This document shows positions 11,493 through 30,507 of a stretch of DNA of 32,000 nt, one piece after another (positions within the stretch are counted from its first letter, which is position 1; every line of letters begins with the position of its first letter). A program made the translations under genes and the position numbers. Source of the DNA: Haloferax volcanii DS2 (lineage in GTDB: Archaea > Halobacteriota > Halobacteria > Halobacteriales > Haloferacaceae); assembly GCF_000025685.1 (NCBI RefSeq), contig NC_013967.1:1050001-1082000 (forward strand), read 5' to 3'. Under the pieces are notes generated by a model that was given only the letters and a program-made list of their open reading frames with translations, was not told the DNA's origin and did no database searches.

Positions 11493-11565
11493 CGGGCGTG
11501 ACGGGATTCGAACCCGCGATCGAGAGGTTAGGAACCTCTCGCCCTGTCCACTAGGCCACACGCCC
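11493..11565 (-). tRNA. tRNA-Arg (anticodon CCT), no encoded CCA, no intron
   Basis: The reverse complement GGGCGTG-TG-GCCT-AGTGGACA-GGGC-G-AGAGG-TTCCTAA-CCTCT-CGATC-GCGGG-TTCGAAT-CCCGT-CACGCCC folds as a cloverleaf. It has a 7-bp acceptor stem, a T-loop TTCGAAT and an anticodon loop TT-CCT-AA. The discriminator base is at 11493. Confidence 0.9.
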
Positions 11566-12679: not shown

Positions 12680-12760
12680 AGCCGCGGTACTGCGTAACGC
12701 GGTAGCGCACCTGATTCGGAGCCCAAGTTCTTTTCTCTCCGTGCGACTACCTTGTGGGTC

Positions 12761-25522: not shown

Positions 25523-26554
25523 ATGGAAACCCGGAAAGTCCAGCGTCTCGGTCCCTCCACGCTGGCGATGACGCTTCCAGCGGAGTGGGCCAAGGAACAC
25601 AACGTCGAGAAGGGCGACGAGGTGACGATTCGAACGAGCGGCAAGGGAACGCTGACGGTTCTCCCCGAATCGGTCAACACCGAAGATTCGAAGGCGACGA
25701 TTCGCGCCGACAGTCTGAACGCGGAGGCGCTCGAACGCGCCATCGTGGCGCAGTACGTCCTCGGGCGACGCGTCATCCACATCGAGAAAAGCGAGGGCGC
25801 GCTCGACTCGGACCACATCAACGCCGTCTACAAAGCCGAGACCCAGCTCATGGGCCTCGGCGTCATCGAGGAGACCCCCGAGCGAATCGCGATTCGCTGT
25901 TCGGTCGACGCGGAGGACTTCACCCTCAACAACCTGCTCGAACGCCTCGAAAACACGGGCAGCACGATGCGCGGCGAGGCCGTCAAGGCGCTCGCCCACG
26001 GCAACCCCGACCTCGCCCAGCGGGCGCTCAACCGCGAGCGGCAGGCGAACAAGATTTTCGTCCTCCTGCTCCGGCTCATCTTCACGTCCTACCAGAACCC
26101 CAACCTCGCGCGGGCGGTCGGCCTCGATTCGGGCTTCCCGCTCATCGGCTACCGCTCGGTGGCGAAGAACCTCGAACTGACCGCCGACAACGCCGAGGAC
26201 ATCGCCAACATCGTCATGGACGCCGAGGGCCACACCATCGACGTCGACCAGTCGACGATGCGGCGCATCCGCGAGTTCACGGACCACGTCGACGAGATTA
26301 CGACGACCGCGGTGCGGGCCGTCGTCGAGCGCGACTACGACCTCACCATCGAGTGCCGAGAGCTGTTCCGCGAGATTAGCGACCGCGAGCGCGACATCCT
26401 CAACGACCTCCCGGAGATGGAAAACCAGAAGCTCCTCCAGATTCGCGAGGTGCTGGTGAGCCTCCAGCAGACCGCGCAGTACGCGATGCGGAACGCCGAA
26501 ATCGCGTCGAACCTCGCGCTCAACGAGGAGTCGGACCACGTCACGATAGACTGA
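25523..26554 (+). CDS. AbrB/SpoVT-domain plus PhoU-domain regulator (phosphate-uptake-regulator-like)
   Basis: The N-terminus METRKVQRLGPSTLAMTLPAEWAKEHNVEKGDEV is an AbrB-type swapped-hairpin. Two helical PhoU-like repeats follow (ERALNRERQANKIF...; ECRELFREISDRERDILNDL...). An AT-rich taatatagtgagatttaagg at 25478-25497 precedes the ATG. Confidence 0.8.
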   Translation: METRKVQRLGPSTLAMTLPAEWAKEHNVEKGDEVTIRTSGKGTLTVLPESVNTEDSKATIRADSLNAEALERAIVAQYVLGRRVIHIEKSEGALDSDHINAVYKAETQLMGLGVIEETPERIAIRCSVDAEDFTLNNLLERLENTGSTMRGEAVKALAHGNPDLAQRALNRERQANKIFVLLLRLIFTSYQNPNLARAVGLDSGFPLIGYRSVAKNLELTADNAEDIANIVMDAEGHTIDVDQSTMRRIREFTDHVDEITTTAVRAVVERDYDLTIECRELFREISDRERDILNDLPEMENQKLLQIREVLVSLQQTAQYAMRNAEIASNLALNEESDHVTID

Positions 26555-27824: not shown

Positions 27825-28964
27825 TTACAGGAGGCCGTCGTCGGTGGTCGTGGTCCCGTCGTCTGAGGAGGGCGTCGTCGCGGTCGTCGCGGTCGTCGTC
27901 GCTGTCGAAGTCGTGGTTGCCGTCGAAGTCGCGGTCTCGGACTCGGCCGTCTCGGTCGCCTCGGTCGTCTCCGTCGCCGTGGGTTCGTCCGTCGTCTCGC
28001 TTCCGTCAGACGCCGCCTTGTTCCCGAAGATGTCCGTCTCGAACGTCTTCTCGTAGGTCAGCGGGTCGAGGGGGACGCGAAGCGTCGTGCCGCCGGCGTC
28101 GAGGTTCGCGTAGAAGTCGATGTGCAGGTCGGTCGTCTGGTCGCGTTCGAGATGCGTGACCCACCACTCGTCGAGCCTGTCGTTCTGGATGTGGGTCGTC
28201 GCCTCGATGGTCTCCGTCGACCGCGGAGGGATGACGTACTCGGAGTTCGTGGTCCCCTCGCCCACGGCCACGTCGTTCATGGAGATGTCGTAGCCGAGTT
28301 CGGAGACCGCAATCGGGTACGGCTTGGGGTTGTGGACGACGAACGTGAGTTCGAGCGCCGTGCGCTCGTCCGTGGATTCGCCCCACTCGGCTCTCGTCTC
28401 GTTGACGTACAACACGGGGTCGGAGACGACCGGCGACTCCGCGTTTATCTCGCTGGTCTCCGTGGAGTTGAACGCCGACAGGAGGTCGGTGTCGATGCTC
28501 CGGGTGATCTCGGGCGCTTCGAAGGTCCGGCCGAGCATCTCCGAGGAGATGGTGGCGTTCACGGCGAGGTCGGTGTGCTCGCCGTTCTGGACGTGCGAGA
28601 CCCACCACTCGGGGATGCACTCGTTTTCGAGCGTCGTCCGAAGCGGGACTGCCGTGGTCCCCTGCCCGACAGAGACGCCTTCCTTCTCGCCGGTCGCCAT
28701 CCGAATCCCGTTCATCTCGACGCCGTAGTCGACGGCGAGCCCGGAGAGGTTCGCTGAAAGCGGGTTCGGGTTCGAGACGTACAGGTCGGTCTCGATGACC
28801 GTCGCCGTCTCGTTGACGCCGCCGAACCGGTTGTCGACTCGGTCGACGCTCGGCGCGCCGATTATTCCGGCCGCGAACGCCGCACCGACGACGGCCGCGA
28901 CGAGCACCAGCGCGACGAGCGCGATACGGAGTTTACCGCCGAACAGCGCGGATGTCAGTCCCAT
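27825..28964 (-). CDS. N-terminally anchored protein with two LEA_2/WHy-like domains and a Thr-rich C-terminal tail (379 aa)
   Basis: The ATG at 28964 gives MGLTSALFGGKLRIALVALVLVAAVVGAAFAAG, a TM anchor. Two repeats have the LEA_2 pattern (LYVSNPNPLSANLSGLAVDYGVEMNG; FVVHNPKPYPIAVSELGYDISMNDV), each followed by EWWV(S/T)H. The track ORF's 120-aa N-terminal extension was rejected. Confidence 0.75.
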   Translation of the reverse strand: MGLTSALFGGKLRIALVALVLVAAVVGAAFAAGIIGAPSVDRVDNRFGGVNETATVIETDLYVSNPNPLSANLSGLAVDYGVEMNGIRMATGEKEGVSVGQGTTAVPLRTTLENECIPEWWVSHVQNGEHTDLAVNATISSEMLGRTFEAPEITRSIDTDLLSAFNSTETSEINAESPVVSDPVLYVNETRAEWGESTDERTALELTFVVHNPKPYPIAVSELGYDISMNDVAVGEGTTNSEYVIPPRSTETIEATTHIQNDRLDEWWVTHLERDQTTDLHIDFYANLDAGGTTLRVPLDPLTYEKTFETDIFGNKAASDGSETTDEPTATETTEATETAESETATSTATTTSTATTTATTATTPSSDDGTTTTDDGLL

Positions 28965-29115
28965 CTTGTGGACACACGAGACTGGTGGTACATATGTCGA
29001 ACGGCCGAGCGCGACGGCGGTTCGCGGGACCGTCCCGCACGCCTCGACCCCGACACGTCGCCCCACGGCAGGCGGTGTCGAATGAACTAAGTGCGCACCC
29101 GCGAAGGTCGGAAAC

Positions 29116-29298
29116 ATGGAAACCAAGACGGTGCAATCCGACAAGTCCATCGGCTTTGCGGCGTTGTTCGGCGTACTCACGCTCGTCGGCGCAGGGCTGA
29201 TGGTCGCCGGACCGGACCAGTTGACGAAGGCGCTCGGGTTCATGGTCGCGATTATCGCGGCCTCGCTGGCGGTCTGCGGCGCGCACCTGTTCCAGTAA
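29116..29298 (+). CDS. Small two-TM membrane protein (60 aa)
   Basis: METKTVQSDKSIGFAALFGVLTLVGAGLMVAGPDQLTKALGFMVAIIAASLAVCGAHLFQ has two clean hydrophobic helices joined by a short polar loop. It is divergent from the LEA_2 gene. Confidence 0.5.
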   Translation: METKTVQSDKSIGFAALFGVLTLVGAGLMVAGPDQLTKALGFMVAIIAASLAVCGAHLFQ

Positions 29299-29365
29299 CG
29301 TTGAGTATCAACGCTGAGGAACACGGGTAACCGTTAATAACGCCCATTCCCTAGACGGTCCGAGG

Positions 29366-29633: not shown

Positions 29634-30065
29634 ATGACCGTCCGCGTGAAACGAACGTTCGAGTTCGACGCTCCCGGCGAGCGCGTCTGGGAGTTCATCG
29701 CCGACCCGGCCAAGCGAGCGGGGGCTATCAGCGTCGTCGACCGCTTCGACGTGTCCGACGACGGCCGCCACGCGACGTGGTATCTCGAACTCCCGATTCC
29801 GCTCGTCCGTTCGACGGTGACAGTCGAGACGGAAGACATCGAAGTCGACGAGCCGACCCACGTCAAGTTCGTCGGTAAGTCGCGGGTGATGCGGGTGACG
29901 GGCGAACACACTATCGAGGAACACGACGGCGGCAGCCGCCTCGTCAACGAGTTCACCGTCGACGGCCGACTGCCGGGCGTCGAGGCGTTCTTCGAGCGCA
30001 ACCTCGACCGCGAACTCGACAACCTCGAAACGGAGCTCCGACGCGAGTTCGAAGCGACCGCGTAA
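29634..30065 (+). CDS. SRPBCC (START/polyketide-cyclase-like) family protein
   Basis: MTVRVKRTFEFDAPGERVWEFIADPAKRA... is the typical SRPBCC opening (beta strand, then 'a..e.vW..l.D'). At 143 aa the size fits this fold. Confidence 0.7.
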   Translation: MTVRVKRTFEFDAPGERVWEFIADPAKRAGAISVVDRFDVSDDGRHATWYLELPIPLVRSTVTVETEDIEVDEPTHVKFVGKSRVMRVTGEHTIEEHDGGSRLVNEFTVDGRLPGVEAFFERNLDRELDNLETELRREFEATA

Positions 30066-30186
30066 CGCCGGCGACGACCGTCGACGCTCGGTGAGACAGG
30101 GCGAGAAACCGCGAGAGCCGTGCGCTCACGGGGTATGAGAACGGCTGTTGCGGTGGCTTTATACATCGTGGCTCCTAAGCGAAAGT

Positions 30187-30395
30187 CGCCGGCGCAATAG
30201 GCGCTTTTCTCGCCAGTCGTCGGCGACTCCACATCCGCCGCACCCGCCGCAACGTTTCGGGGTCTGTTGCGGCATCCGAAACGACGTGGCCACGTCGTTT
30301 CGCGCTCCCAAGCCCGGTGGGAGCGCACTCCCCTCGTCTCACTTCGCCGACTGGTGACGCGAGATTCGGCGGGAGGCGAATTCGCCTCCGCCTTT
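30187..30395 (+). ncRNA. Candidate structured small RNA of about 210 nt (prediction only)
   Basis: TATA-like tttata at 30157-30162. Five consecutive strong stem-loops follow between 30184 and 30391. The last is a 12-bp stem with one bulge, followed by TTTT at 30392-30395. No credible ORF is present. Confidence 0.3.
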
Positions 30396-30507
30396 TGACG
30401 ACCGCTTCGCTCCGAGCCACGGCGTCGCCGCGCCTCGGCGGCGACCCCCCGACCGCCCGACAGTCCGAGAGCGCACGCTTCTTTCCCCCGGCCCCCGTGG
30501 AGCCACC

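Follow-up and report, generated by a model that had tools for sequence, protein, structure and literature searches.

The stretch of DNA analysed here, called the window, comprises 32,000 nt of the Haloferax volcanii DS2 chromosome (1,050,001-1,082,000). HVO_1187 starts at 1079634 (29634) and HVO_1188 at 1080508 (30508) (Babski 2016, Table S2), so a window coordinate equals the chromosome coordinate minus 1,050,000. Between these two genes, which encode an SRPBCC protein and a DUF7526 protein, respectively, lies a gap of 442 nt (30066-30507). The flanking proteins match exactly D4GWU2 (START/SRPBCC) and D4GWU6 (DUF7526), both from Haloferax volcanii. As had been proposed for this region, the gap is crossed only by GC-rich shadow frames. 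The following features are distinguished.

29634-30065, plus strand: HVO_1187, an SRPBCC gene (Polyketide_cyc2, Pfam) and the constant upstream neighbour of the RNA.
30146-30163, plus strand: promoter with a conserved block TGTTGCGGTGGC (30146-57, BRE-like) and a TATA box TTTATA (30158-63), near-invariant in 13 Haloferax sequences.
30188-30342, plus strand: sRNA500 (HVO_1187s) as annotated (CHR 1080188-1080342, 155 nt; Babski 2016; Jaschinski 2014).
30188-30224, plus strand: 5'-terminal hairpin P1/P1a, 100% paired in 13 Haloferax species.
30235-30251, plus strand: C-rich single-stranded linker with the direct repeat CCGCCGCA (30235-42 and 30244-51), read from the sequence.
30246-30273, plus strand: helix P2, GCCGCAACG (30246-54) with UGUUGCGGC (30265-73) and loop UUUCGGGGUC, 100% paired in 13 Haloferax species.
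30277-30302, plus strand: P3, a 26-nt perfect palindrome hairpin, Haloferax-specific.
30302-30326, plus strand: P4, GCGCUCCCA with UGGGAGCGC and loop AGCCCGG (conserved core CCCGG), from comparison.
30333-30363, plus strand: P5, CUCGUCUCAC (30333-42) with GUGACGCGAG (30354-63), 86% paired, with one compensatory change.
30336, plus strand: dominant mapped RNA 3' end (CHR 1080336), within the C/U-rich tail (Berkemer 2020, Supplementary Table 1).
30368-30396, plus strand: terminator-like hairpin (30368-92) and TTTT (30393-96), with a published 3' end at 30389 (DSM method).
30424-30445, plus strand: a further inverted repeat outside the RNA gene, with the weak HVO_1188 transcription start site (TSS, 30432) just past its 5' arm.

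The hairpin-rich gap holds, with a probability of about 93%, the gene of sRNA500 (HVO_1187s), an independently transcribed, abundant and structured small non-coding RNA; this figure covers both the identity and the anatomy described here. The gene is already known from the literature of 2009-2016 and is neither a new RNA nor a mobile element. The RNomics set of Straub 2009 reportedly includes sRNA500. In the published list, HVO_1187s is sRNA500, located at CHR 1080188-342/F with a length of 155 nt (Jaschinski 2014, Table 1, PMC3956466), and CHR 1080188-1080342 forward is window 30188-30342, the same position and strand. It was detected by RNomics, bioinformatic prediction and high-throughput sequencing (Jaschinski 2014, PMC3956466). 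The row for the forward TSS 1080188 bears the name of HVO_1187s, an RNA that was already known (Babski 2016, Table S2, PMC4983044), and the 70-nt upstream string printed for it, CCGTGCGCTCACGG...AAGCGAAAGTCG, is identical to window 30118-30188. The original prediction had called this RNA a candidate novel one, a description that must be dropped for a published locus that had been found by all three of these approaches and deleted. No entry for the sRNA500 locus was present in the supplements of Laass 2019 or Gelsinger 2018 or in the text of Dallon 2025, and the literature search found no further mention of HVO_1187.

The proposal that the gap carries a plus-strand structured RNA gene with its own TATA promoter is borne out by the published primary TSS at 30188, which lies 30 nt past the first T of TTTATA. 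The centre of the TATA box is at -28 of TSS 1080188 (Babski 2016, Table S2, PMC4983044). In dRNA-seq, this start was classified as primary, with a coverage of 1675 on average and the flag e111, while the neighbouring TSSs reached 8-459 (Babski 2016, PMC4983044). The 3' end (TTS) of the HVO_1187 mRNA was mapped to 1080160 (30160), that is, inside the TATA box of sRNA500 (Berkemer 2020, PMC7237163).

At the other end of the RNA, the picture is more complex. An RNA of about 210 nt with an intrinsic-terminator-like end had been predicted; the main species is only about 149-155 nt long (ends 30336-30342). The 3' end at 1080336, within HVO_1187s, has a coverage of 17641, far above the rest of the neighbourhood, and a second 3' end at 1080389 (30389) was called by another algorithm, the DSM method (Berkemer 2020, PMC7237163). 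A hairpin and a T-run do exist downstream, and the published end at 30389 lies beside them, but the dominant 3' end lies upstream of them at 30336. There is no T-run at 30336, and an end at this position cuts the conserved helix P5. Since this end lies upstream in the C/U-rich tail and within P5, a longer primary or read-through form (about 205 nt) may exist beside the shorter abundant form (149-155 nt), and the hairpin 30368-92 with its TTTT is the probable end of a primary or read-through transcript. A bacterial-style consensus scan, which is uninformative in an archaeal host, did not call the TTTT hairpin (30368-96) because it has only 4 T.

The original prediction was built on six inverted repeats, referred to here as stems 1 to 6. 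All of them are present in the sequence, although their coordinates had been set consistently 1 nt too low. Apart from the palindrome (stem 3, listed above as P3), their corrected positions are given below.

30185-91 and 30221-27, plus strand: stem 1, gtcgccg / cggcgac.
30254-60 and 30276-82, plus strand: stem 2, gtttcgg / ccgaaac.
30302-10 and 30318-26, plus strand: stem 4, gcgctccca / tgggagcgc.
30368-92, plus strand: stem 5, ggcgggaggcgaa/ttcgcctccgcc, then TTTT at 30393-96.
30424-31 and 30438-45, plus strand: stem 6, gtcgccgc / gcggcgac.

The density of inverted repeats in the gap exceeds both chance and the GC-rich background of the window. Within the gap, 14 8-mers have an exact inverted partner at most 30 nt away, compared with a mean of 1.2 (sd 1.9) in 442-nt windows across the 32 kb, of which the best unrelated one reached 5. 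Against dinucleotide shuffles, the fold z-score of the whole gap was -3.7 for the plus strand and -2.35 for the minus strand; it was -3.0 for 30188-30342 and -4.1 for 30188-30396.

Orthologous loci were fetched by a search with the SRPBCC protein, which yielded 12 other Haloferax species, Salinigranum, Natronomonas, Natronolimnohabitans and uncultured haloarchaea. Across the 12 other Haloferax species, a core spanning 30146-30365 is near-invariant, and both flanks diverge. When a six-helix model was laid over the 13-species Haloferax alignment, 95.7% of the cells were paired versus 24-56% in controls with slid partners, and P1, P1a, P2 and P3 were paired in every one of the 13 species (100%). 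All one-sided substitutions in P1, P1a, P2 and P3 lead to G.U. As G.U pairs are tolerated only in the plus-strand RNA, this pattern of substitutions argues for a function at the RNA level.

The same pattern bears on the extremely improbable reading that the palindromes act in DNA, serving as a regulator's operator sites or as an origin-like element, or are chance GC-rich features. Two perfect palindromes with zero spacer (30277-30302 and 30372-89) have the form typical of dimeric DNA-binding sites. However, the region is transcribed at a very high level, the substitutions in P1-P3 are all tolerated as G.U on the plus strand only, the stems covary across genera, and the density of inverted repeats is far above the window background. 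There is likewise a minimal chance that the transcript encodes a small protein, as some H. volcanii sRNAs are reported to do. The region is crossed by short ORFs (43-69 codons), but the one of 69 codons begins before the TSS, and conservation follows stems and loops. Indels of 1, 2 and 7-9 nt occur in the RNA region within Haloferax; they break any reading frame, and the RNA is therefore taken to be non-coding.

Comparison of homologues refined the helices one by one. It showed that stems 1 (outer part), 3 and 4 keep pairing and that compensatory changes occur in P1, P2 and P4. Since transcription begins at G30188, the RNA opens directly with P1 (GCCGGCG 30188-94 / CGUCGGC 30218-24) and lacks the first 3 nt of the proposed 5' arm of stem 1. 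The outer helix of stem 1 is thus genuine, whereas the inner gcgc/gcgc pair that had been proposed within it is found in only 1 of the 13 Haloferax species, H. volcanii itself. It is replaced by P1a (GGCG 30200-03 / CGCC 30211-14), which closes the invariant heptaloop CUUUUCU (30204-10). Two classes of guide RNA were considered for this region and rejected on anatomical grounds. A C/D-box guide RNA would carry RUGAUGA, which does not occur in 30188-30396. As for an H/ACA guide RNA, an ACA (30231-33) does follow P1, yet P1 has neither a two-sided pocket nor a GA-type K-turn, and its internal-loop sequences vary between genera.

The linker downstream of P1 holds two copies of CCGCCGCA, which in some homologues vary in concert; the 5' arm of P2 shares nucleotides with the second one. 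The P2 loop UUUCGGGGUC has the invariant core CGGGGUC. Within Haloferax, all P2 substitutions are to G.U, and compensatory changes appear in Salinigranum and in metagenome homologues, e.g., GCCACAGCG/CGCUGUGGC and ACCGCAGUA/UACUGUGGU. RNAalifold paired the first CCGCCGCA copy with the 3' arm of P2 instead. We prefer the putative register with the second copy because it yields 9 bp around a 10-nt loop and is paired in every homologue. Stem 2 had been drawn in the wrong register; it is broken or gapped in 5 of the 13 Haloferax species, and the true helix is 30246-54/30265-73.

Stems 3 and 4 were confirmed as RNA helices. The palindrome of stem 3 measures 26 nt (30277-30302) rather than 24. Where H. 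chudinovii and H. denitrificans have G in place of A, pairing is maintained as G.U on the plus-strand RNA only. Other genera have a different sequence at this position, and the P3 palindrome is a Haloferax insertion. In P4 (stem 4), a C-G to U-A swap has taken place in four Haloferax species, and in other genera stems of 5-9 bp with a different sequence enclose the same loop.

The conserved block reaches about 25 nt past the annotated 3' end, through P5, and is followed by the less conserved terminator-like hairpin. P5 is conserved in Haloferax only and is absent from the 149-155 nt species; it is present in the minimum-free-energy fold of 30188-30396. Stem 5 survives as a real, terminator-like hairpin followed by TTTT, but its sequence is clade-specific: at 30368-92 it varies between Haloferax clades, and a hairpin and CTTT are retained. 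Stem 6 has no part in the RNA; it lies outside the conserved block, and the distant Haloferax clade has no alignable sequence there. Nor can it form in the HVO_1188 mRNA, since transcription of that gene starts at 30432, just past the 5' arm.

The relationship between stems 1 and 6 had also suggested a MITE-like non-autonomous mobile element with these stems as terminal inverted repeats, since they share the arm gtcgccg/cggcgac. The chance of this is next to none. The 32-kb window holds a single copy of sRNA500, and each homologous locus has exactly one. The segment has no match among 72,556 plasmid records, and the viral contigs searched for the sRNA500 hairpin returned chance matches only. 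The genomic position does not change from genus to genus, and the proposed right end, stem 6, is unconserved even within Haloferax (distant clade). No target-site duplications flanking the segment were seen in the sequence.

Beyond Haloferax, the 5' hairpin with its own TTTAT/TTTAA box was found at the syntenic site in Salinigranum, a Natronomonas MAG, Natronolimnohabitans (where the loop reads CUUUUCA) and two further MAGs. Scanning metagenomes for a hairpin pattern gave 120 stretches, and about 43 of them were haloarchaeal loci whose TATA box is suitably spaced. In a set of 45 distinct hairpins from several genera, 89.9% of the cells were paired, compared with 18-66% in slid controls, and 33 cells had a double change, compared with 12.6 +/- 2.7 in shuffles (0/500). 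For part of this cross-genus set, the scan pattern prescribed the loop together with six stem pairs, of which three are outer and three inner; the covariation counts as evidence because it is carried by the pairs that the pattern left free, whereas the invariance of the loop is independently backed by the synteny-derived loci only. One of these loci (L020), with the loop CUUUUCA, is an exception to CUUUUCU. With a covariance model built from the hairpins, true members reached 41-56 bits, and pattern matches due to chance stayed at or below 27 bits. The model found exactly one member per locus, the window member being at 30187-30225. Of 40 members, 39 have exactly 30 nt from the first T of the TATA box to the first G of the hairpin, which is also the spacing at the TSS mapped in H. 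volcanii.

A subfamily that includes Haloferax, Salinigranum and five uncultured lineages also keeps P2 and P4, in which the stem sequences vary around the constant loops CGGGGUC and (A)GCCCGG. More distant members share the C/U-rich tail, often ending in a T-run at about 105-165 nt, and the architecture of their 3' halves differs between subfamilies. Across genera, the predicted helices P1, P2 and P4 keep pairing through compensatory changes, and their loops are constant. sRNA500 had been reported in 0 other haloarchaeal genomes (Jaschinski 2014, Table 5, PMC3956466). Judging from the comparison of sequences, this statement is contradicted, and sRNA500 is far more widely conserved than reported. 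The search of Rfam 15 at the gathering threshold found only a tRNA (11493-11565) in the 32-kb window, and no match was obtained at the RNA in eight homologous loci. For the gap itself, a search up to E 10 gave a single chance match of 13.9 bits.

The genes around the RNA are conserved on one side only. Of the metagenome loci found by the RNA hairpin alone, 30 extend more than 1.5 kb upstream, and 29 of these have an SRPBCC gene there on the same strand. Conversely, the RNA is present in all 19 of the loci found through the protein that have enough downstream DNA. It starts 45-190 nt past the stop of the SRPBCC gene or of the carbon-nitrogen hydrolase gene that follows it. The downstream neighbour varies by genus: outside Haloferax the DUF7526 gene does not occupy this position, where a convergent aldehyde dehydrogenase gene or a gene for a RIO-like kinase is found instead. 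The linkage between the SRPBCC gene and the RNA looks selected because gene order is otherwise poorly kept, as the downstream side demonstrates.

This variable side also bears on a possible role of the region as a cis-regulatory 5' leader or riboswitch of HVO_1188 (DUF7526). Such a role might be suggested by the arrangement, in which the RNA lies upstream of HVO_1188 on the same strand with a terminator-like hairpin between them. It is very improbable given that HVO_1188 has its own weak TSS at 1080432 (30432), with a coverage of 38 and a 76-nt 5' UTR (Babski 2016, PMC4983044), and the dominant RNA ends at 30336. Moreover, the downstream gene differs between genera and is often convergent, and no Rfam riboswitch matches.

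Returning to sRNA500 as a gene in its own right, a bolder reading of the synteny is that it is the founder of a structured RNA family across the class Halobacteria, locked to an SRPBCC-family gene, with the RNA and the SRPBCC protein as functional partners. We consider this quite unlikely. If it were true, the partnership, as an RNP or as a regulator and its target, would represent a new conserved RNA-protein system in archaea.

What is known about the function of sRNA500 comes from its deletion. The swarming of the mutant was reduced to 29% of the parent, the strongest swarming defect of the set, and its growth yield after 4 mM paraquat was 129% of the parent (Jaschinski 2014, PMC3956466). 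These phenotypes are mild, pleiotropic and indirect as to function. A mechanism can be sketched from the anatomy. Transcription from a strong archaeal promoter starts at G30188 and gives an RNA led by the CUUUUCU-capped 5' hairpin, which is followed by the C-rich linker, P2, P3, P4 and the C/U-rich tail. The RNA might then act in trans through its constant loops on a conserved partner, most likely a protein (in an RNP or with the RNA sequestering it), that is possibly tied to the neighbouring SRPBCC gene. We put forward this action in trans tentatively, at somewhat less than even odds, on the basis of the conservation pattern, the abundance and the synteny; it is suggested by invariant loops over covarying stems in an abundant RNA whose conservation extends across genera. 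Fast-evolving antisense regulation of particular mRNAs would be less likely.

The main competitor to a protein partner is a classical base-pairing regulator, in which the C-rich linker (two copies of CCGCCGCA), the C/U-rich tail or the loops would pair with G-rich sites in mRNAs. Its targets could be, for example, motility or oxidative-stress genes, whose translation or stability would be altered. Such an activity would fit the changes in swarming and paraquat tolerance upon deletion and the unpaired C-rich stretches in the predicted folds, and other H. volcanii sRNAs have been described as regulators (Jaschinski 2014, PMC3956466). However, regulatory haloarchaeal sRNAs have been published as fast-evolving and species-specific (PMC3956466), whereas the loops of sRNA500 are invariant across genera, and base pairing is judged somewhat unlikely. 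When sRNA500 was compared by RNAduplex with every 80-nt piece of the 32 kb, no hit rose above the GC-driven background apart from the sRNA's own antisense. AGAAAAG, the complement of the 5' loop, occurs in the window on the plus strand only at 25785 and on the minus strand at 12736 and, as the loop's own antisense, at 30210, which is uninformative.

The present comparison corrects the published statement on conservation, as the CUUUUCU-capped 5' hairpin and the covarying stems occur in several haloarchaeal genera. The comparative secondary structure can serve as a seed for an Rfam-type model, and the near-perfect adjacency to the SRPBCC gene offers a first concrete and testable lead to the function of this abundant archaeal sRNA.

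Among known RNA families, the only model that scored in the region is Rfam RF03143, the S15-Halobacteria ribosomal protein leader, which aligned to a minus-strand hairpin (30302-35). It was rejected as a chance match, with 13.9 bits against a gathering threshold of 49, E = 9.5, the wrong strand and 39 of the 66 model positions missing. A looser likeness can be drawn to other abundant RNAs. The bacterial 6S RNA and Y RNA are abundant, stable, structured and non-essential protein-binding housekeeping RNAs with a conserved structure and invariant unpaired motifs. Their resemblance to sRNA500 is one of analogy and not of membership, since it goes without similarity in sequence or structure. Closer counterparts are found in H. 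volcanii itself. sRNA132, sRNA308 and sRNA63 are, like sRNA500, about 100-200 nt long and intergenic, with their own archaeal promoters and mild deletion phenotypes (Jaschinski 2014, PMC3956466), and the deletions of sRNA132 and sRNA308 share with that of sRNA500 the gain of yield with paraquat (PMC3956466). Unlike most other H. volcanii sRNAs, which were reported as species-specific (PMC3956466), sRNA500 extends across genera with covarying stems and a fixed synteny. The closest system is the published sRNA500 (HVO_1187s), which has the same locus, strand and upstream sequence as the RNA of the gap. The published RNA came with no structure, no function and 0 other genomes; the present comparison finds it nearly unchanged in 12 other Haloferax species, and the family of its 5' hairpin reaches Salinigranum, Natronomonas, Natronolimnohabitans and many metagenome contigs.

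Almost always, the gene for sRNA500 (HVO_1187s), a plus-strand small RNA of Haloferax volcanii, is directly preceded on the same strand by an SRPBCC gene orthologous to HVO_1187 or by a pair of genes for an SRPBCC protein and a CN-hydrolase. This adjacency was found in 29 of the 30 loci that were retrieved through the 5' hairpin of the RNA and in all 19 of those retrieved through the SRPBCC protein, while the downstream neighbour differs among loci. Besides window 29634-30224, the sample comprised loci L013-L021 and some 30 loci from metagenomes, with L025, L066, and L136 among the latter. Published mapping puts the 3' end of HVO_1187 mRNA at chromosome position 1080160, within the sRNA500 promoter's TTTATA box (30158-30163), and therefore a single T-rich element may serve as both the terminator of HVO_1187 and the promoter of sRNA500.

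The loop cores of helices P2 (UCGGG, 30257-30261) and P4 (CCCGG, 30313-30317) are both invariant and are complementary over 5 bp (four G-C pairs and a U.G pair). In another subfamily (e.g., L030, L119, and L078), the two motifs are found 4 nt apart within one hairpin. A putative loop-loop contact between P2 and P4 is possible, and covariation is uninformative on it because neither loop varies. The region 30235-30273 contains a direct repeat, CCGCCGCA, at 30235-42 and 30244-51, and its two copies are alternative 5' partners of the 3' arm of P2. In some homologues, both copies change in step with this arm (e.g., GCCACA in L142), and their joint change may point to alternative pairing or to a binding motif that is repeated. 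A further helix was absent from the six stem-loops of the original prediction:

30333-30363, P5, a seventh helix, CUCGUCUCAC/GUGACGCGAG with an invariant C.C mismatch, conserved in Haloferax

Its 5' arm contains the dominant mapped 3' end, at 30336.

Two other features of the window were recorded:

11493-11565, minus strand, tRNA gene, the sole Rfam match in the 32-kb window
27825-29324, minus strand, long ORF of 499 codons

Related assemblies have a shorter gene call (379 aa) at this position, so the ORF probably carries a 5' extension. Its C-terminus is an extreme low-complexity tail rich in Thr, Ala, Glu, and Asp.

According to Jaschinski et al. 2014 (Table 5; PMC3956466), sRNA500 occurs in no other haloarchaeal genome. 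This absence is in fact contradicted by the alignments of homologous loci (A1-A3), in which sRNA500 is near-invariant across 12 further species of Haloferax and can be recognised in four or more additional genera or lineages.
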